64,000 nt of DNA, taken from the NCBI GenBank assembly GCA_965218095.1, contig OZ244587.1, positions 96,001 to 160,000 on the forward strand. The letters are read 5' to 3'. Shown in pieces: positions 41,096-49,619 of this stretch. Numbering within the stretch: position 1 is the first letter of the stretch; each line of letters opens with the position of its first letter. This stretch comes from Candidatus Poribacteria bacterium. Lineage in GTDB: Bacteria; Poribacteria; WGA-4E; PCPOR2b. A program made the translations under genes and the position numbers. Under the pieces are notes generated by a model. The model saw only the letters and a program-made list of their open reading frames with translations, was not told where the DNA came from and searched no databases.

Positions 41096-41839
41096 GTGGT
41101 TGATGGGGTGATTTATGTCATTGGTGGGGTAAATTGGTGGCTGCCCACACCCATGCGCAGTACCGTTGAAGCGTATGACTCCGTAACCGATACGTGGTCA
41201 GAAAAGGCGGACATGTCAGCGCCGAAGGCGTGGCTGACTACCGCAGCGGTCAATGGAAGAATCTACGCCATCGGCGGTATGCAGAGGCTCCCCAATGGGG
41301 ATTGGACAATATTGGACGACGTCGAAGAATACGACCGTGTGAGAGATGTGTGGACGAAAAAGCAGGACATGCCGGCCCCAAGAGCTTTCTTAGGGGCTGC
41401 GGTCGTTGATGATAGAATTTATGTCACTGACGGCTTTGGTGTTGAATTTCTCTTGTCGAGGGTCGAAATCTACACTCCCGCTAAGGACAGGTGGAGCAAC
41501 GGGAGCCTGATGCCGATGCCACTAGAAACTGTCAAAGTCGGGGTAGATGGAAAAATCTATGTGATTGGCGGTGAGAACACATCGCCGCTTGTGGAAATTT
41601 ACGATACCACAACCCGAAAATGGTCGGTGGGAACTCAGATGCCAACGGGCAGAGACCGTTTATCGACCAGTGTGGTCAATGGAAAAATCTATGCCATTGG
41701 TGGCGCGAATGCAGACCTAGACGCGGCATACAAGACGGTAGAAGTCTACGACCCTCAAGGCGACCCCAATGAGCCATTCGCGGTTTCTCCACAAGGCAGG
41801 TTGGCAACGATGTGGGGAGAGATAAAAGAGCGCCATTAG
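41096..41839 (+). CDS. Kelch-repeat protein, probably 5'-truncated
   Basis: Five Kelch repeats (GxIYxIGG...VExYD...W). It begins mid-repeat with no signal peptide and ends in AVSPQGRLATMWGEIK. Confidence 0.8.
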   Translation: MVDGVIYVIGGVNWWLPTPMRSTVEAYDSVTDTWSEKADMSAPKAWLTTAAVNGRIYAIGGMQRLPNGDWTILDDVEEYDRVRDVWTKKQDMPAPRAFLGAAVVDDRIYVTDGFGVEFLLSRVEIYTPAKDRWSNGSLMPMPLETVKVGVDGKIYVIGGENTSPLVEIYDTTTRKWSVGTQMPTGRDRLSTSVVNGKIYAIGGANADLDAAYKTVEVYDPQGDPNEPFAVSPQGRLATMWGEIKERH

Positions 41840-42060: not shown

Positions 42061-42307
42061 TGTCACTAACGTGTGAAAGCCTTTTGGGGTCTCCCTCTCC
42101 GCTTAGGCAGTTGCCAAAGCGGTGCTGGCGCCACATAGCAGAACAGTTGTCTGACACGCCATTGATGATCTGTTATCCCGGCGACCGTCGCCGGCGTGTA
42201 TTCACCCATCTTTCTTTCCTCCTAAAAAAAGAATGTCAGAGAGTGTGTCCCGAAAATTCCCAGTGGGACACACTTTCTGAGTGATGAAATTTCTTCTGCC
42301 AAAAGTT

Positions 42308-43360
42308 TCAGAACGAACGTGACATCGTAAGGGAAACAGTTGTTCCGAGTTCAAAAGCGTCACCTTCATCTGATAATGTCCTTCGGTGCAATGGCAGCAT
42401 AACGGAAAAGCGTGTTGGTATGTCGTATCCAGCATTCACCGTTGTACCGAACAACACTGCATTGAGTACTAAACCTGAGTTAATATCCCGCTCACCGTCC
42501 CAGTGGGCGTAGGATTGGTAAAACCCCAGATAGGTCGTATGAAGCGCAAGCCAATCTAGCAGGTGATATTTCACTTCTGCTGTCGAAGTTACTTCCACAG
42601 ACCCACGATAGGTTTTGCTGTTTTCATAGAACGGAAATTGCCCTCTGACAGAAGCACTCAGCGAAAAATCACTAAAGAGTGGCGTTCCGTAATGTAGTTC
42701 AGCCAATGGATTGAACGTCCTTGTTCCAAACTGGATATGGAGATGTTCCAATCCAGCATCACCCAACTCGAATGGGTTTTCCTCTGTCTTGCCTATCGGA
42801 ATGCTCGTTCCCAGTGATGCAACCAGGTCGTCGCTTTCGCGCAAGACACCAAACCTTCTGTGAGAAAACAGAAGCCTGAAATCGGAGAATCCTCGATAGG
42901 TTTCATCGCGGTGGTGGATATTCTGGTTTGCAAGTATCGCCCCGCGCTCGCGGGGGGACGTGGATTCAATTTCCTCAACGCTTGCGTCCTGACTCTTGAT
43001 TCCATAAGGCACACTGAGTAAGACTTCCCAGCTATCAGCTATGCTATACCCAATGCCCAAATCCACACGAAGAAAATCAAGAGAGACAAGGTGTCTGTGC
43101 AGTGGTGACTTAATAACTTGCCGAGTCGGGGAAAGTCCCTTCGTCTCTAAATGTCCACCGTCAGAGTCAAAACCTCTTAGTACATTGAGAGAGACCCGAA
43201 ATTTACGTGTGTCTTCTGAAGCCGAACCGACTTCATCTATCCCGCTACGCGGAATTGCGGGATTGCTTCAAGCGCCGCACGATTCTTGACCGAATGCAAA
43301 CGGCAAGAGATGGAAGAAACCAAGTAGCAGCGTGGTTAAAAAGACTGTCGTTTTCATCAT
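42308..43360 (-). CDS. putative selenocysteine-containing (CxxU) outer-membrane beta-barrel protein
   Basis: GAGGTG RBS, ATG 43360, signal peptide ending AFG, then QES-C-G-A-TGA (43268-70) with the same frame open to 42308. Amphipathic strands, terminal Phe and a SECIS-like hairpin. Confidence 0.75.
43239..43255 (-). promoter_or_regulatory. putative bacterial SECIS element
   Basis: AUUCCGC-GUA-GCGGGAU, loop at +20..+22 after the UGA, the same position as in the UGSC gene. Confidence 0.65.
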
Positions 43361-43456
43361 TCACCTCAAGTAATCAATGAATAGAAATAAATAGAGCGAT
43401 GCACTAAGGCTGTCAATTGAGAATCAAAGACTGACAAAGCCTCAGAAACTGTAAAA

Positions 43457-43903
43457 TTAGATATGAGAAAATTTGGGAGGTGAATGCGGTGGGGCGCGAG
43501 GGGAAGCCTGACAGATAGGAAAATATTCGTAGAAATTTAGGAATGGTCGAGGTCGGAGAGTGGTTTCATAAGAAGAAGAGAAAGCAGAAGGGGAAGGAAG
43601 TATGACGGTTAGCGAAAATGTTGTGTGAAATAGCTTGCTCAAATCCAAATCGTTAGATTCGTTTGGGATGGTGAGTTTCAATCCAACGAAGCAACAGTTT
43701 CCAATTTGAGGCTTTTCCTGTTGAGGCGTATTTTTAGTCCCTGTGTTGCAGTGATTTGAGCAGCTTGGGCATGATGGGATTTTTCCAATTGAGGTGGAGT
43801 CCAGGACAGAGAATCCACAATCCCCCTGCATGAGGGCTGGACAGAGATTGTAGAATGAAAAGCCGAAAAGGAAAAGGATAGATATAATTGGCTTTATCTT
43901 CAT
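43457..43903 (-). CDS. Cys-rich leader protein with C-terminal RAPP motif (DUF2946/CruR-like)
   Basis: N-terminal hydrophobic segment, CPSCSNHC and CC clusters, C-terminal SPRAPP; upstream of an outer-membrane protein gene. Confidence 0.7.
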   Translation of the reverse strand: MKIKPIISILFLFGFSFYNLCPALMQGDCGFSVLDSTSIGKIPSCPSCSNHCNTGTKNTPQQEKPQIGNCCFVGLKLTIPNESNDLDLSKLFHTTFSLTVILPSPSAFSSSYETTLRPRPFLNFYEYFPICQASPRAPPHSPPKFSHI

Positions 43904-43947
43904 CGTTGATTTAGCTCTACGAGGTGTTGTGAAGGGCAATGGACAAG

Positions 43948-43977
43948 ATTATACAGGATAGTTTCCTTCGGATTCAA
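43948..43977 (-). promoter_or_regulatory. sigma70 promoter of the RAPP leader gene
   Basis: TTGAAT-N18-TATAAT on the minus strand. Confidence 0.55.
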
Positions 43978-44125
43978 GGTGCGTTTACTATGATACTTGG
44001 ACGATTAGGGCGTCGGTGGGTTTACTGCTAGTGTTTAAATATTTACCCCTGCTTCCTCTGCACACATAAATGCGGTAGCTTCTTCAGCGCAGTTTTCTGT
44101 GAGCCGGAAAACGGGAAATCGGGAT

Positions 44126-45616
44126 TTATGAAGATGTCACCAACTTCGTAGAAATCTTGAGACGGCGCCGTACGAACTGTGATACGGAGTCAATGCACAT
44201 GTTGAGCACCGCCGTGACAAGAATAAGTAGAATCACCTTATCAAGCTGGTCATCGGAAATTGCACTGTCAATATAAAATCCCAGCGTGTAGATGCCAAGG
44301 AGGCCGAGGATGGCGGACTCCCGCATCATCACCTCCCAACGGTAAAACAGGAAGGCAAGGAACTGTCCGTATACCCGCGGAAGGATCTCAAAAAAATACC
44401 GGTCCATCCGTTTGCGGGGCGCATCCATCCGTAGGGAGATCAGGTCTGCGTTGTTGCTGCTCAGGAAGGCGAGGATGGCCCCATTGTGCAACAAAATTGC
44501 CCAGACAGCCGGGAGCATGGACGGCCCCCAGAGTTGTACAAAGATATACGCCAGAATGTACTCCGGGGTTGTGCGAATGACGATCAGGGCGTAGTGCGAA
44601 ATCCGATTAGCGATCTTCCCCGCGAAATGCCGGCAGGCTGAAGGAAAGCTCAACAGCGTAAACACGCCGGTCCCCATCAGCACGATCTGTGTTAGCACCA
44701 CCGTGTTCCACACCCCTTCCCATGCCTCTTGGACAAAAATCTCCTTCGCCCATCGCAGGACGGGGCCCCAGGCGAACGATACCGCGTGGGTACCATCCAT
44801 CAACCCCTCCCGGCGCATTGGCCACGGCAGAATCTCGTACGTGAAGAAGCGAAGGACGTTTTCCCAGGACAGTGCGATTTCCTGTGACAGCAGCACAAAC
44901 GCCGCCGCAACATAAAATGGCGCCAGACGGGGCTTGAGCCAGTACTTGAGTGAGGCAACCAGGAGGTAGAAAGCGTAGAGCAGCGCCGCAGCCTCTGAGT
45001 ACATGCCTTCGCGAAATGCGGTCTCAAGATGAAATCCGAGCGTCGGCAGCCCAATGAATCCGAGAATCGCGCTGGAGCGTAGGGCGCACTCGAAACGGTA
45101 GCCGGTATAGTGTTTGGCGTCGGCATAGATGATAGGAAGGATGCCATAGACAAAGCGGCTCAAACCTCCAGACGCTCTAGGAACGCCCTCTAGTGGACGC
45201 CGATCCGACTCCTGAATAATCTCTGCATACACCTTGGCAAAGATACCAGCATAGGGAATCGCGATGGCGAGCACACCGCAGATTGGGTTGAGTCCAACAA
45301 TAGGGAGGAAGATGAAAGCCCAGAAAATCTCGTGAATGGCGCGGATAAAAGCGCAGAACAACCTGACAGGGGTAAAACGGAAGACGAACGCCAGCCCGAT
45401 ACCAAGTACTACACCCAGAAAAATACCGCAGAGGGCAAAGACCACCGTGTTGAGCAGCGCAGATTTCAAACCCCAGAGGGCAGGAACATCCGGGGTGATT
45501 GCGCCCCAGGCCATTCGGCTCAGTTCTGTCCAGGGGTGCAATGTGGAGATTTCAAGGTCTGCCAACAGGAGAGCTATCAGGGCAATCGCGACAAAGAAAA
45601 GGCTGGTTCTCAACAT
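44126..45616 (-). CDS. PhnE-like ABC permease with two fused TM modules (putative selenate/phosphonate-type)
   Basis: Duplicated motifs RAIHEIFWA/YRFECALRSSAILG and RTTPEYILA/YRWEVMMRESAILG. Confidence 0.88.
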   Translation of the reverse strand: MLRTSLFFVAIALIALLLADLEISTLHPWTELSRMAWGAITPDVPALWGLKSALLNTVVFALCGIFLGVVLGIGLAFVFRFTPVRLFCAFIRAIHEIFWAFIFLPIVGLNPICGVLAIAIPYAGIFAKVYAEIIQESDRRPLEGVPRASGGLSRFVYGILPIIYADAKHYTGYRFECALRSSAILGFIGLPTLGFHLETAFREGMYSEAAALLYAFYLLVASLKYWLKPRLAPFYVAAAFVLLSQEIALSWENVLRFFTYEILPWPMRREGLMDGTHAVSFAWGPVLRWAKEIFVQEAWEGVWNTVVLTQIVLMGTGVFTLLSFPSACRHFAGKIANRISHYALIVIRTTPEYILAYIFVQLWGPSMLPAVWAILLHNGAILAFLSSNNADLISLRMDAPRKRMDRYFFEILPRVYGQFLAFLFYRWEVMMRESAILGLLGIYTLGFYIDSAISDDQLDKVILLILVTAVLNMCIDSVSQFVRRRLKISTKLVTSS

Positions 45617-45648
45617 AGCAATGGTATAACCTTTGAAAGGTTCTGAAT

Positions 45649-46335
45649 TTAAAGGGTTTTCTCATTCCGATACAGTTCCGTAAGCATTGTTTGCGTCACT
45701 TCCCCGGCTGGCAGATCGAATTGAATCTCCCCATCACGAAGCCCGACCATCCGTTGTGCGAACTTTAGGGCGAATTCCACCGCGTGCAGTGACACCACAA
45801 CGGTTTCCGTATTCTGGATAATGATTTCCATCACCGTGCCTGCCTGGTGGGGGTCTATTGAGGATACCGGTTCATCCGCCAACAGGATATCCTCTCCGCG
45901 GTAAATCGCACGCGCAACGGCTACCCGCTGCTGCTGTCCTCCAGACAGCGCACCAGCCTTTTCAAAGGTTTTCTCCTCCATCCCCAGTGCGCGTAGGATG
46001 GGAGCGATTTCCCGCAACACCTTCTTCTGCGGCTTAATTAGGTTCAGGAGATTGTAGGCTGTGGAATGCCGATCAAGCCGCCCAATATAGATATTGTGGA
46101 AGGCAGAGAGCTGCGGCGCCAGGGCATAGTGCTGATGCACAAATGCAGACTGGTCCGCAACGCTTTCGTAGAGTGTGCGCAGCAAGGTGGTTTTGCCGGC
46201 GCCGCTCGGACCCACCAGCGCGACCTTTTCTCCCCTGTCGATTTGCAGAGTGATATTTTTCAAGGCAACGTTGTGTTGGTAGGCTACACTTTCTGCAACC
46301 AGACTAAACAGCGCGGTATCGGCAGGTGACTTCAT
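45649..46335 (-). CDS. PhnC-like ABC ATP-binding protein
   Basis: GPSGAGKT, LSGGQQQRVA, LLADEP and VSLH motifs. Confidence 0.93.
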   Translation of the reverse strand: MKSPADTALFSLVAESVAYQHNVALKNITLQIDRGEKVALVGPSGAGKTTLLRTLYESVADQSAFVHQHYALAPQLSAFHNIYIGRLDRHSTAYNLLNLIKPQKKVLREIAPILRALGMEEKTFEKAGALSGGQQQRVAVARAIYRGEDILLADEPVSSIDPHQAGTVMEIIIQNTETVVVSLHAVEFALKFAQRMVGLRDGEIQFDLPAGEVTQTMLTELYRNEKTL

Positions 46336-46818: not shown

Positions 46819-47949
46819 TTATTTTTCGATAAGGAATAGGAATTCTCTATTTGGCAGTTCCGCATCGCTTAGCCATTCATTGGTCCAGCACATTCTAGCC
46901 ATCACGTTCTTTTTGTAATCGATTTCTATCACATCCAAGAGCGTACCGTTCGCCCTGATGACCTCGTTGAGCTCATCCGCTGTTGCGCGACCGCCAGAGC
47001 TGTATGACAAGATGACGAACTTGGCTTGCACCCTTCTGATGAGACGCTCAATTGCCTCAACCGCGACAAATTGACCGCTACCATCACGGCGGAATTCTTC
47101 AAAAACGGATGATGCAACCTTGTCGGATGTGTCTGTTCTTCGTTTCGCTTTTCCAAAGAGTTCCGCCCGATCGTAAAGGCAGATGCTTGTCCAAATGTGA
47201 TAGTAAGCGGCGTATCGCACCCGTGAAGGCGGCATCTTCTCGCTATTAGAACCGTAAGGCGGATCGAGATATGCCAAATCTACATCGACATCATTGATTA
47301 TCTCAAAGACATCAGCACGAGACACCTGATGCTCATGCTCGGTCGAAAAGAGCATCGGCACCCTTAACTGAAGATGATTGTAAGATCGAGGAGACCAGTC
47401 TTTGAGGTATGAGGCGAAATGCCCAAGGGTGCTATCAACTTTATCAAGTGCAAGAATCAGACTCGTTATGGCGACCGCTTTATCAACAGTCTCGAGATGG
47501 AGAGATTCTATTTCATCACGGATGCCATCCAGCTTTCTTGTGTTGTGTATTTGCCAAGGCTTCTTCATGCCATCCGACTGAATCGCCGATCCGCCATTCG
47601 GCAGCCCACCGTAGTGTTCGGTGAACCAACCATCAACCGGCTTTGTGTGATTGAGGTGAGCTATCAGCTCCTTATATGCATCCGGTCTCTTTTGGGTTCG
47701 CAAGTAGCAGTCGCCCAAAACCTCAGACCACACGGCGATGTCGTTGCAATAAACGCTGTATCCCGATTTGGCAAAGGCTTGAGAGACACGGGTGGTGCCT
47801 GAAAAGGCGTCAAATACCGTCTCTGCTTTAACTCGTTTAGCGAGTTGGAGAATATATGGGAGCAACTTGAGTTTTGAGCCGGCATATTTGATGCCTTCTG
47901 TGGGTGGCGCGTCAACGACAAGCTCATCAAATAGTGATCGTGCCTGCAT
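46819..47949 (-). CDS. D12-class N6-adenine DNA methyltransferase
   Basis: KYAGSKLKLL, motif I FDAFSGT and motif IV YLDPPY in alpha order. ATG 47949 overlaps an upstream TAA. Confidence 0.9.
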   Translation of the reverse strand: MQARSLFDELVVDAPPTEGIKYAGSKLKLLPYILQLAKRVKAETVFDAFSGTTRVSQAFAKSGYSVYCNDIAVWSEVLGDCYLRTQKRPDAYKELIAHLNHTKPVDGWFTEHYGGLPNGGSAIQSDGMKKPWQIHNTRKLDGIRDEIESLHLETVDKAVAITSLILALDKVDSTLGHFASYLKDWSPRSYNHLQLRVPMLFSTEHEHQVSRADVFEIINDVDVDLAYLDPPYGSNSEKMPPSRVRYAAYYHIWTSICLYDRAELFGKAKRRTDTSDKVASSVFEEFRRDGSGQFVAVEAIERLIRRVQAKFVILSYSSGGRATADELNEVIRANGTLLDVIEIDYKKNVMARMCWTNEWLSDAELPNREFLFLIEK

Positions 47950-48330
47950 TATTGACCCATCCCTGATATCTTCTTGAGTTGAAAAATATCTTCTTTGACT
48001 TTTTCGAGAGCCCCCTGATGGCCAGCTTCGGAAGATACCAGAGCGTGAGAGAATAGCTTTACGAGAACGAGGTTGTGTGAATAGTCGATCCAACCATTGG
48101 TAATGCTATCAAAGTATTTCAACCCCTTTTTGGTATGAGTCCAAAGGCCACGTTGTAAGGATTAGTAGTCGTCATAGTGATAAATTTCTGCCCAACTCTT
48201 GATTAGACGGATTTTTTCGCATCACACAATACCAGAGGTGTTATACGGAATTTTGCTGATAAACGGCTGGTTAAGTGCTGTACGACTTGAATTTTAATGA
48301 TGCTCTCGCGTTTGTTTATTTGACCTCTTG
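47949..48330 (-). pseudogene. degraded gene coupled to the MTase (probable restriction endonuclease relic)
   Basis: Open C-terminal stretch RGLWTHTKKG...KISGMGQ* ending in a TAATG overlap, with an internal TAA and a frameshift upstream. Confidence 0.45.
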
Positions 48331-48397
48331 GAGTTGGTCAGCCAACCATAAATTGGCCAATGTTTCGGGTAAAACTCCCTACACACGCGCTCGTGTT

Positions 48398-49567
48398 TCA
48401 ATCCGTAGCAATGCCAAGCTCGGATACGTCGATCTCGCCGGAGATGAATTTCGGGAGCAGCAGATCGCGGGTTTGGCGTAGGTTGGCGTTTTTAAGATCT
48501 AAAGCAACAATGTTATCAAAAATAGGTTCAATCATTTTGTTGAATCTGTCTAACAAACTTTGCGGAGGCGAAAGGGTTGGAATCCTATTCAGATTGTGTT
48601 GGTTAATCTTTGGCTGTGCGGTGCCTGTAATATAACTCGAAATGGCTACGTTGGACATGAACAAATAAAGAAAGTTTGTCGAAATCGGAGCTTTTCCTTG
48701 AACGACATGTGTATGATTATTTACCCAGAATTTACCAGTTACTAACTGTAGTACAGGCTTCCCATCTTCGGTAATAACACTGCCATCTTCCGCAATTAAT
48801 AAATACCTCCCATCAAATAGATAACCGTTGATATGATCTAAGATTTTAGCAGCACCATAATATGGATATTCACCTTGCATGGTGGATCTAGCCATCCCTG
48901 ACAGTGGTTTCCGCTGACGATCAAAGTTAAGGGAAACTTCGCCAAAGCTCTTTACCTCCCACCCCTGCGGTATCAACCCCAACTCCGACTCCACCATCTC
49001 CACCTGCTCATGTCTCGGAAAGCGGAACTCGACAAACCATTGTCGGTAGATTGTTTGCGCCATCTCCTCAAGGATCTTGATGCGGCGGGTGTTGTTTTCA
49101 ATCAAGTCGTCGTAGGGACTGAGGACTGCGGCGATTTTGCGTTGGATTTGGTAAGGTGGTAGGGATAATCTTATTGCTTTCAGATTTGCTTGCGATAGCT
49201 TAGGCTGTGCAGTTCCTGTAATATAGCCTGAGATATTAGCAGACTGGATATAGCTCATCAAAAAATAATCGTCAGCAACTCCGGGTATACCTTGAACAAT
49301 ATGAGCATGATTATTGACCCAGAATTTGCCGGATGCAAAGAAGGCGATAGGTGTCTTTCTTTCCACGAGGTTTGCGCCATCTTCAGAAATCAGCAAGTAT
49401 CCTCTATCGAAAATATAATCATCAATGTAATCAATAATTCCCGATGCCCCGTAATACGGATACTTTCCCTGCCTTTGACTTCTCTGCTTGGTACTCAAAG
49501 GTATGCGTTTGTGATCGTAGAGTTCAATCACTTCACCGAAAGTTGTCTCTGTCCACGAATCTGTCAT
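48398..49567 (-). CDS. hsdS: type I restriction-modification specificity subunit
   Basis: Two TRDs separated by PPYQIQRKIAAVLS...DDLIENN; C-terminal RDLLLPKFISGEIDV. Confidence 0.92.
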   Translation of the reverse strand: MTDSWTETTFGEVIELYDHKRIPLSTKQRSQRQGKYPYYGASGIIDYIDDYIFDRGYLLISEDGANLVERKTPIAFFASGKFWVNNHAHIVQGIPGVADDYFLMSYIQSANISGYITGTAQPKLSQANLKAIRLSLPPYQIQRKIAAVLSPYDDLIENNTRRIKILEEMAQTIYRQWFVEFRFPRHEQVEMVESELGLIPQGWEVKSFGEVSLNFDRQRKPLSGMARSTMQGEYPYYGAAKILDHINGYLFDGRYLLIAEDGSVITEDGKPVLQLVTGKFWVNNHTHVVQGKAPISTNFLYLFMSNVAISSYITGTAQPKINQHNLNRIPTLSPPQSLLDRFNKMIEPIFDNIVALDLKNANLRQTRDLLLPKFISGEIDVSELGIATD

Positions 49568-49619
49568 ACCGTCTCCCATACCGTCTCCTCCAAAATCATC
49601 ACGACATTCCTGATTTATT

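Follow-up and report, generated by a model that had tools for sequence, protein, structure and literature searches.

A putative metal-sensing arrest leader upstream of a predicted selenocysteine-containing outer-membrane barrel in Candidatus Poribacteria

What does a small exported protein with a C-terminal ribosome-arrest motif do immediately upstream of a gene for a predicted outer-membrane beta-barrel, the reading frame of which is crossed by a TGA codon? The question is raised by a 64,000-nucleotide (nt) stretch of a Candidatus Poribacteria bacterium (GenBank assembly GCA_965218095.1, contig OZ244587.1, positions 96,001 to 160,000; referred to below as the window and numbered from its first letter), in which both genes, the leader and the barrel gene, are on the minus strand between positions 42,308 and 43,977. 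The host genome is 6.35 Mb and is a single contig. A preliminary description of this locus proposed a stall-and-release leader controlling a selenoprotein channel; its observations are confirmed, and its interpretation is partly supported and holds in its main lines as a reading of the sequence. The leader is likely a regulatory arrest peptide, and, a shade less firmly, the two genes probably form a module in which a metal-sensing arrest leader controls a barrel containing selenocysteine (U).

The leader open reading frame (ORF) starts MKIKPIISILFLFGFSFYNLCPALMQGDC, codes for 148 amino acids (aa), and ends SPRAPPHSPPKFSHI, followed by TAA. The hydrophobic N terminus, the CPSCSNHC cluster, the CC pair at residues 70 and 71, and the C-terminal SPRAPP, with RAPP nine residues before the stop, are all present as described earlier. 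Neither the leader nor the barrel protein of the window matches any Pfam or NCBIfam model. A word-based search recovers four leader relatives, all retaining PRAPPH, and a profile built from more distant copies found upstream of other barrels matches 41 cluster representatives among 1.84 billion proteins; a further profile search returns 24 proteins, none with a Pfam domain and two of which are named hypothetical proteins of Poribacteria. All family members have a hydrophobic stretch after basic residues, a predicted export segment recognized by inspection only.

The 44 aligned leader-family members have a mean column identity of merely 21%, and conservation is concentrated at a few positions. 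No variation is seen at R136 and P139, and at least 90% of members retain P138, both CC motifs, and C21, a residue at the end of the hydrophobic segment. The arrest motif is RAPP in 27 leaders, RGPP in 13 (RAPP or RGPP in 40 of 44), RPPP in two, and RSPP and RGTP in one each, and this R-x-P-P-type motif is 1 to 10 residues from the C-terminal end, at four residues in 30 leaders and at nine in seven, including the window leader. Total length ranges from 124 to 208 aa, with the distance from the second CC to the arginine being 64 residues in 30 of the 44 and 63 to 65 in 36; a distance fixed in this way across otherwise free sequence is easier to reconcile with a nascent-chain sensor than with a folded protein. 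The expected conservation of RAPP and the cysteines therefore holds for the R-x-P-P and Cys motifs, which are present in all leader relatives, but not for the CPSC (CxxC) cluster, as CPSCSNHC is found only in the window leader and one 91%-identical relative, with the other members having CC at this place.

The motif is rare in the host genome. Among its 10,996 six-frame ORFs of 80 aa or more, only two with a length of up to 300 aa have RAPP within 12 residues of the end, and both belong to the leader family. By profile, the leader family is present in 147 of 176 Poribacteria genomes, all in four families of one order (f1, 22/28; f2, 110/112; f3, 10/11; f4, 4/7), with none in 17 genomes of families f5 to f11, and it appears to be restricted to Poribacteria. 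A look-alike from the ESM Atlas, DUF6769 of Bacteroidota, is a lead only: its score of 0.94 is accompanied by 131 to 141 shared features, fewer than the 170 typical of true family members, and the DUF6769 Pfam model matches 2 of the 44 leaders, with a best E value of 0.068.

Leader and barrel genes are adjacent in many other genomes, spanning three Poribacteria families, as the preliminary description had anticipated, with the leader-bearing clades told apart by genome-family labels and identity levels. The leader is upstream of the barrel in 8 of 29 translated barrel loci (families f1, f2, and f4), to which one decayed remnant can be added. In a survey of GTDB genomes covering the best 80 of 328 barrel loci, 79 of which were parsed (47 UxxU and 32 CxxU; the set overlaps the 29 loci), a leader is present at 32, comprising 31 of the 32 CxxU loci versus 1 of the 47 UxxU loci, although these counts are not independent events because the loci are kin. 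Family f4 and one close relative additionally have leaders ahead of UGAU barrels. The barrels of these pairs have diverged to 36 to 50% identity and the leaders to 20 to 26%, with the two genes still adjacent. Neither loss of the motifs nor loss of synteny, the two sequence findings that were held to speak against the pairing, was seen.

Two side observations concern these loci. Several GTDB Poribacteria genomes (loci L076 to L155) carry one CxxU and one UxxU barrel copy each. At L017 (G019:C1:3400591-3404637), the leader ahead of a UGAU barrel ends after about 42 residues, and leader-like sequence continues in another frame, with a TGA in place of a Trp of the relatives; it looks like a decaying leader.

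Viewed from the leader side, the barrel (of the CPAU type) is the next gene in 20 of the 30 best leader loci, and the other 10 leaders are followed by other genes. A second leader copy in the host genome (L156:6833-7318, minus strand, within G000:C1:1697001-1705000) ends SPRAPPFPFT and heads a cluster that codes for a protein with a weak, DUF3347-like hit (22.8 bits against a cut-off of 25.5) along with a TolC-like OEP protein and a multicopper oxidase. Other leaders precede a secreted YtkA-like protein, or a YHS-domain protein and then a TolC-like gene. The genes that these paralogous leaders precede are what links the leader to metals, with copper the likeliest, as with CutF and cutO (see below); whether copper is the signal sensed by the leader is, from these gene contexts, an evenly balanced call.

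The layout is reminiscent of two published leaders. CruR of Bordetella pertussis (Bp2923, DUF2946) is encoded by an ORF upstream of the TonB-dependent transporter gene bfrG, has a fixed CxxC-to-RAPP spacing as its hallmark, and acts via Rho-dependent termination, with copper relieving the stall (Roy et al., available text of PMC9426467). The window leader is likewise a small exported protein encoded first in its predicted operon, in which a Cys motif and a C-terminal RAPP are a fixed number of residues apart, and it shares the long spacer and the outer-membrane target, but it has CC motifs rather than CxxC, a spacing of 64 rather than 45 residues, and a RAPP 9 rather than 3 residues from the end, and its sequence suggests unmasking of the Shine-Dalgarno (SD) sequence rather than Rho-dependent termination. 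CutF of Rhodobacter capsulatus (DUF2946) is encoded upstream of the multicopper oxidase gene cutO, and its stall opens a stem-loop in which the ribosome-binding site of the next gene is sequestered (available text of bioRxiv 10.1101/2025.02.05.636593). CutF is a cotranslationally secreted sensor with a Cys motif about 69 residues before a C-terminal proline motif (counted from the quoted residue numbers), and the second leader copy of the host genome resembles it further in preceding a multicopper oxidase; in contrast, CutF has a PPP motif dependent on elongation factor P rather than RAPP, belongs to a different sequence family, and has a target that is not a barrel.

The relationship to DUF2946 suggested earlier did not hold up in profile searches. 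The window leader matches no family at an E value of 1 or below, and of the 44 leader members one matches DUF2946 (PF11162) at an E value of 0.11 and none at the cut-off; PF11162 also has no match at an E value of 1 or below in the host genome and is carried by none of the 24 proteins from the leader profile search. As it falls below the DUF2946 model, the leader is placed beside CruR and CutF as a variant that resembles them in layout, and not as a member of their family. The earlier wording of a new regulatory system was also too strong, as small exported RAPP or RGPP proteins upstream of TonB-receptor and copper genes have been described in many phyla (PMC12992588; PMC10951233, in the text available). 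Like ApdA, ApdP, ApcA, SecM-like, and Streptomyces arrest peptides, the leaders are small secreted or membrane proteins with RAPP or RGPP near the C terminus, encoded ahead of a gene that they would regulate. They differ in that a few family members have RSPP, RPPP, or RGTP and in that arrest here is predicted from sequence, and a selenoprotein barrel is not among the annotation classes of targets named in the available text of PMC12992588.

In the proposed mechanism the leader would be exported during its synthesis, and the nascent chain is probably the metal sensor, with copper the likeliest metal. In a ribosome positioned at RAPP, the CC motif would be 64 to 65 residues behind, about the length of the ribosome tunnel plus the Sec export channel, and would just reach the periplasm. 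Stalling at RAPP would be set by whether the Cys motifs have bound metal. The P site of the stalled ribosome would sit at 43492 to 43490, and the leading edge of a ribosome is about 15 to 16 nt past its P site. The stalled ribosome would thus cover CAUUCACCUC, freeing the barrel start site as in SecM/secA and CutF/cutO, whereas in a ribosome running on to the stop codon the helix between this anti-SD sequence and the SD would re-form. Metal may promote the stall, in the CutF way, or relieve it, in the CruR way, and the sequence is compatible with either.

The spacer between the leader stop and the first barrel ATG (43360) measures 96 nt; up to the second ATG (43357), the start conserved in relatives, it measures 99 nt. 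The start region is organized as GAGGUGA-AUG-AUG. The ten bases following RAPP, CAUUCACCUC, are the exact complement of GAGGUGAAUG, which spans the SD and the first AUG of the barrel gene. In the minimum-energy folds of three of four sequences (the window and two of three relatives), the RAPP-proximal bases are paired with the SD and AUG around a central hairpin, and the complement is kept in two of the three relatives compared and lost in the third. The anti-SD/SD duplex has an energy of -16.4 kcal/mol in the window, a value reached by 20 of 2000 shuffles; the corresponding numbers for the relatives are 26/2000 for L018, 134/2000 for L019, and 503/2000 for L076. SD unmasking by a stalled ribosome at this locus is plausible and not established, and on these figures it falls a little short of an even call.

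The preliminary description had also pointed to a hairpin in the 96-bp spacer. This hairpin, GAGGCUUUGUCA...UGACAGCCUU (43442 to 43406), is present and is part of the minimum-energy fold, and a hairpin is at the same mid-spacer place in three relatives, but it is built there from a different 3' arm, and its sequence is not conserved. As a significant stand-alone structure it was rejected, given this difference and a spacer fold at the level of shuffled sequence.

Spacers of the RGPP-type loci (L096 to L155) are organized differently. They are about 170 to 200 nt long, with conserved stem-loops and no clear SD. A stem-loop of the form GAAUUCC-loop-GGAAUUC, with compensatory changes, is directly after the leader stop codon. 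A compensated stem overlaps this stop codon, and one of the conserved hairpins pairs the last leader codons with downstream bases, again with compensatory changes. A GC-rich hairpin, likewise conserved and compensated, is about 40 nt before the barrel start. The pairing of the last codons suggests that the translation state of the leader sets the spacer structure and that the route may vary by clade.

Several observations weigh against the proposed control by SD unmasking or limit its reach. Taken in full, the spacer folds at a stability not exceeding that of shuffled sequences (z score of -0.48; 53 of 200 fold at least as well), and the anti-SD pairing is weaker in L019 and absent in L076, with the four sequences being close kin. 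The pairing is only modestly above chance, because a C/U-rich stretch pairs readily with a purine-rich one, and the spacer of the second leader copy has no comparable anti-SD-like structure (z score of 0.11). Because the RGPP-type spacers are longer, have other hairpins, and lack a clear SD, the downstream mechanism is probably not uniform in the family. In addition, 46 of the 47 UxxU barrel loci have no leader, and with most barrels lacking one, the barrel family in general does not require a leader.

In the strongest alternative, the leader stalls and senses metal but acts on transcription, with the stall blocking Rho loading or formation of an attenuator hairpin and its release causing termination before the barrel gene. 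CruR works in this mode (available text of PMC9426467), and the mid-spacer hairpin at the same place in four related sequences, the compensated GC-rich hairpin and stop-overlapping stem of the RGPP-type loci, and the moderate strength of the anti-SD evidence are all in keeping with it. However, a scan found no terminator-like site in the spacer, and a 10-nt complement of the SD and AUG is located exactly under the would-be stalled ribosome in three of the four sequences, which makes transcriptional control the less probable route, although one to be taken seriously.

A second alternative is that the leader is an ordinary stable protein, such as a periplasmic membrane-anchored metallochaperone or a partner of the barrel, in which RxPP is a structural or sorting feature and no arrest occurs. 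A length of 124 to 208 aa is long for a pure leader, the conserved CxxxC-like and CC motifs suit a metal-binding protein, and RNA-library contigs from sponges (see below) cover part of the leader. A stable fold does not readily account for an exact 64-residue CC-to-Arg spacing in proteins of variable sequence and length, which outside the Cys and RxPP motifs are barely conserved, and what follows the leaders is a set of unrelated metal genes, not a single constant partner; moreover, RAPP and RGPP are reportedly avoided in bacterial proteomes outside arrest peptides (available text of PMC12992588). We regard a stable, nonarresting protein as improbable, and an arrest leader remains the preferred reading.

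The second half of the module is the barrel gene. Read from 43357, its frame is MKTTVFLTTLLLGFFHLLPFAFGQES-C-G-A-TGA-SNPAIP and is open for 349 codons to a terminal TGA, with the in-frame TGA at codon 30 situated within QES-C-G-A-U-SNP, directly after a signal-peptide-like N terminus. A database search with the barrel returns 564 homologues, of which none of the best 120 covers more than 90% of the query, so all of these 120 are called to start after the TGA. The barrel gene is present in 25 of 41 related genomes, and all 33 full-length matches contain in-frame TGA codons, two in 27 of them and one in the other 6. In 24 of the 29 translated loci, a start codon and signal peptide are followed by Q-[ED]-S-U-G-A-U-S-N-P, and the other 5, the window among them, have Cys instead of the first U. 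At the second motif position, TGA is found in 29/29 loci and in 79/79 of the overlapping GTDB set, and no barrel with Cys at this position is found among the loci examined. Of the 80 best barrel loci, 77 are from Candidatus Poribacteria metagenome-assembled genomes, and the other three are from entries named uncultured bacterium.

The host genome codes for the selenocysteine machinery, with all components above curated cut-offs: selB (353.7 bits) adjoins a canonical 94-nt tRNA-Sec, and selA and selD score 605.7 and 371.1 bits, respectively. The selA gene is found in 40 of the 41 related genomes. The selD gene itself (G000:C1:5447425-5448348, L013) has one in-frame TGA and is probably a selenoprotein gene.

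Two stem-loops follow the TGA and are candidates for a selenocysteine insertion sequence (SECIS). Among 29 orthologs, stem-loop 1 has two possible registers, in which pairing extends to 84 to 88% of cells and compensatory changes occur at two pairs, and stem-loop 2 has 92.9% of cells paired and compensatory changes in three of six pairs; together they are 91% paired, with compensatory changes in 5 of 10 pairs, and pairing drops to 26 to 50% when the 3' partners are slid by one to three columns. RNAalifold on the codon-based post-TGA alignment mixed the two registers of stem-loop 1, and both registers were counted by hand. With each compensatory change the encoded residues change together, something that constraint on the protein alone would not demand. 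In the UGAU orthologs, two TGA codons 9 nt apart are ahead of these candidate SECIS stem-loops. A point on the other side is that Rfam gives only chance matches at an E value of 10 or below in 42200 to 44100, leaving the stem-loops with no Rfam match. The machinery, the conservation, and the stem-loops together make the CxxU barrel gene proposed earlier a credible selenoprotein gene, and the in-frame TGA very likely codes for selenocysteine.

That the TGA is instead a true stop (a broken gene or one with a downstream start) or is read by a suppressor tRNA is very improbable, for although gene callers cut all of the best 120 homologues at the TGA and the host has a 75-nt tRNA with anticodon UCA (C1:4577829-4577903), an in-frame signal peptide precedes the TGA in every ortholog compared and a barrel lacking it would not be exportable, both the TGA and the stem-loops behind it are conserved, with covariation, either Cys or TGA occurs at the first motif position, and the UCA anticodon is peculiar to the host genome, with UCG in the four relatives checked.

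The UCA tRNA is of note in its own right. It has a normal cloverleaf and is located in a tRNA cluster (G000:C1:4577829-4577903), with copies in 40 of 41 related genomes at 82 to 95% identity; its orthologues in the four relatives are tRNA-Arg(UCG). Its anticodon reflects an error in the assembly or else the change of a single base, which would make it a possible opal suppressor. As the anticodon is peculiar to the host genome, this tRNA cannot account for a TGA that is retained throughout the order, and it was rejected as the decoder of the barrel TGAs.

An AlphaFold2 model built with 42 sequences (predicted local distance difference test score, 78.5; predicted template modeling score, 0.74) has a closed barrel from about residue 53, with residues 1 to 49, containing the signal peptide and selenocysteine motif, at low confidence. 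The best Foldseek matches are the 12-stranded FapF (E value, 1.4e-11) and the COG4313 channel of Pseudomonas putida (4rl8_A; E value, 5.9e-11), with template modeling scores normalized to the target of 0.67 to 0.75 (0.70 for 4rl8_A). Three of four homologues pass the Phenol_MetA_deg (PF13557) model at 25.2 to 26.2 bits against a cut-off of 22, and the window barrel has no hit. The model thus suggests a 12-stranded outer-membrane channel with the fold of FapF and the COG4313/Phenol_MetA_deg channels, from which the window barrel differs in the missing Pfam hit, the N-terminal selenocysteine motif, and its many invariant histidines (H69, H87, H89, H148, H149, H205, and H207 in the barrel alignment). 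Barrels with an even strand count are expected to have their two ends on the periplasmic side, so that the selenocysteine motif would be a periplasmic N-terminal tail.

Published selenocysteine-containing outer-membrane proteins include an MtrB/PioB-family barrel (the GSU2204 family) and a TonB-dependent receptor, and UxxU motifs have been reported in a metal-binding protein (NF041115) and in Prx-like and FmdB-family proteins (PMC13188914, PMC9312934, and PMC12013277); unlike these, the window barrel matches no NCBIfam model. Searches of the available text of these three papers gave no mention of the barrel family, and full-text searches for Poribacteria with selenocysteine gave no paper on this gene, judged by title or abstract. 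The barrel therefore appears to represent an undescribed selenoprotein family whose usual form has two selenocysteines (UGAU).

The N terminus of the mature barrel, Cys-Gly-Ala-U (U-Gly-Ala-U in most orthologs), probably serves as a tether, metal-binding or redox-active, by which the channel is fed or gated. A more far-reaching possibility, advanced tentatively and on balance doubtful, is an obligately selenium-dependent channel family in which a UxxU or CxxU tether passes a soft metal, for example Cu(I), to a His-lined barrel, and which in one set of copies would be produced solely upon stalling of a sensor from a hitherto unrecognized RAPP/RGPP family, combining arrest and one or two selenocysteine recodings in one operon. 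The obligate dependence on selenium is suggested because no Cys form is seen at the second motif position.

The features of the locus are listed in Table 1.

Table 1. Positions of leader, spacer, and barrel features in the window
Feature	Position	Strand	Remark
Promoter-like site TTGAAT-N18-TATAAT	43948..43977	-	Ahead of leader
Leader gene, 148 aa and TAA stop	43457..43903	-	Predicted export segment, Cys motifs, C-terminal RAPP
RAPP codons CGC GCC CCA CCG, residues 136-139	43487..43498	-	Presumed stall site
Candidate anti-SD CAUUCACCUC	43477..43486	-	Directly 3' of RAPP; fully complementary to barrel SD and first AUG
Spacer hairpin	43406..43442	-	In minimum-energy fold
GAGGUGAAUG, SD and first AUG of barrel gene	43358..43367	-	
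Barrel gene, 349 codons and TGA stop	42308..43357	-	Signal peptide, CGAU motif, predicted 12-stranded outer-membrane beta-barrel
In-frame TGA, codon 30	43268..43270	-	Read as selenocysteine (predicted)
Cys27 codon	43279..43277	-	TGA in most orthologs
Stem-loop 1 (AUCCCGC...GCGGGAU), SECIS candidate	43239..43263	-	After in-frame TGA
Stem-loop 2 (GAAGUCG-GUU-CGGCUUC)	43218..43234	-	Loop GUU nearly invariant

The promoter proposed earlier is present, matching the consensus at 10 of 12 positions, and its -10 hexamer is kept in position in three relatives (TATAAT, TATGAT, and TAGAAT), but the number of such sites is not above chance, as three are found in 2.2 kb versus 2.6 expected from shuffled sequence, and the match alone carries no more weight than that. 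Four sponge metatranscriptome runs from a single study yield contigs that match parts of both genes at 90 to 99% identity; the longest pieces cover 334 nt of the barrel gene and 291 nt of the leader, and none of the contigs connects the two genes. These contigs may be DNA and are not proof of expression, of an operon, or of a transcript start, and the parts that they do not cover carry no meaning. The 291-nt contig (window 43670-43959) spans the 5' part of the leader and the predicted -10 box and reaches 6 nt beyond, which counts against this promoter as the sole start: if the contig is RNA, some transcripts start upstream of the predicted site.

Upstream of the leader on the same strand (window 44126-46335) are genes coding for ATP-binding cassette transporter components, a fused PhnE-like permease (496 aa; 201 bits, just below the TIGR01097 cut-off) and a PhnC-like ATPase beside it, with no substrate-binding gene seen next to them. 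They were rejected as part of the module because the upstream neighbors of the leader differ among relatives. Farther upstream on the minus strand (window 46819-49579), two ORFs resemble, by eye only, a DNA methyltransferase with a DPPY motif and a type I restriction specificity subunit. On the plus strand, a Kelch-repeat protein gene (window 41096-41839; Pfam Kelch_1, E value of 6.6e-44) is convergent with the barrel gene.

The metal-sensing arrest leaders characterized so far are two proteobacterial DUF2946 proteins, and this locus points to a second, sequence-unrelated leader family with the same plan and a sharper spacing rule of 64 residues, extending the arrest-leader principle to an uncultured phylum of sponge symbionts. 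The barrel is a predicted selenoprotein missed by standard pipelines, its best 120 database copies all being cut at the TGA; search methods based on selenocysteine/cysteine pairs depend on a Cys homologue at the invariant position, and none is seen in the loci examined. Two selenocysteines three positions apart at the N terminus of a mature barrel would, if true, be an unusual metal or redox site, and the two neighboring UGA codons would test how one SECIS region serves both. If the soft-metal channel reading is true, selenium and copper handling would be linked at the envelope of sponge symbionts.

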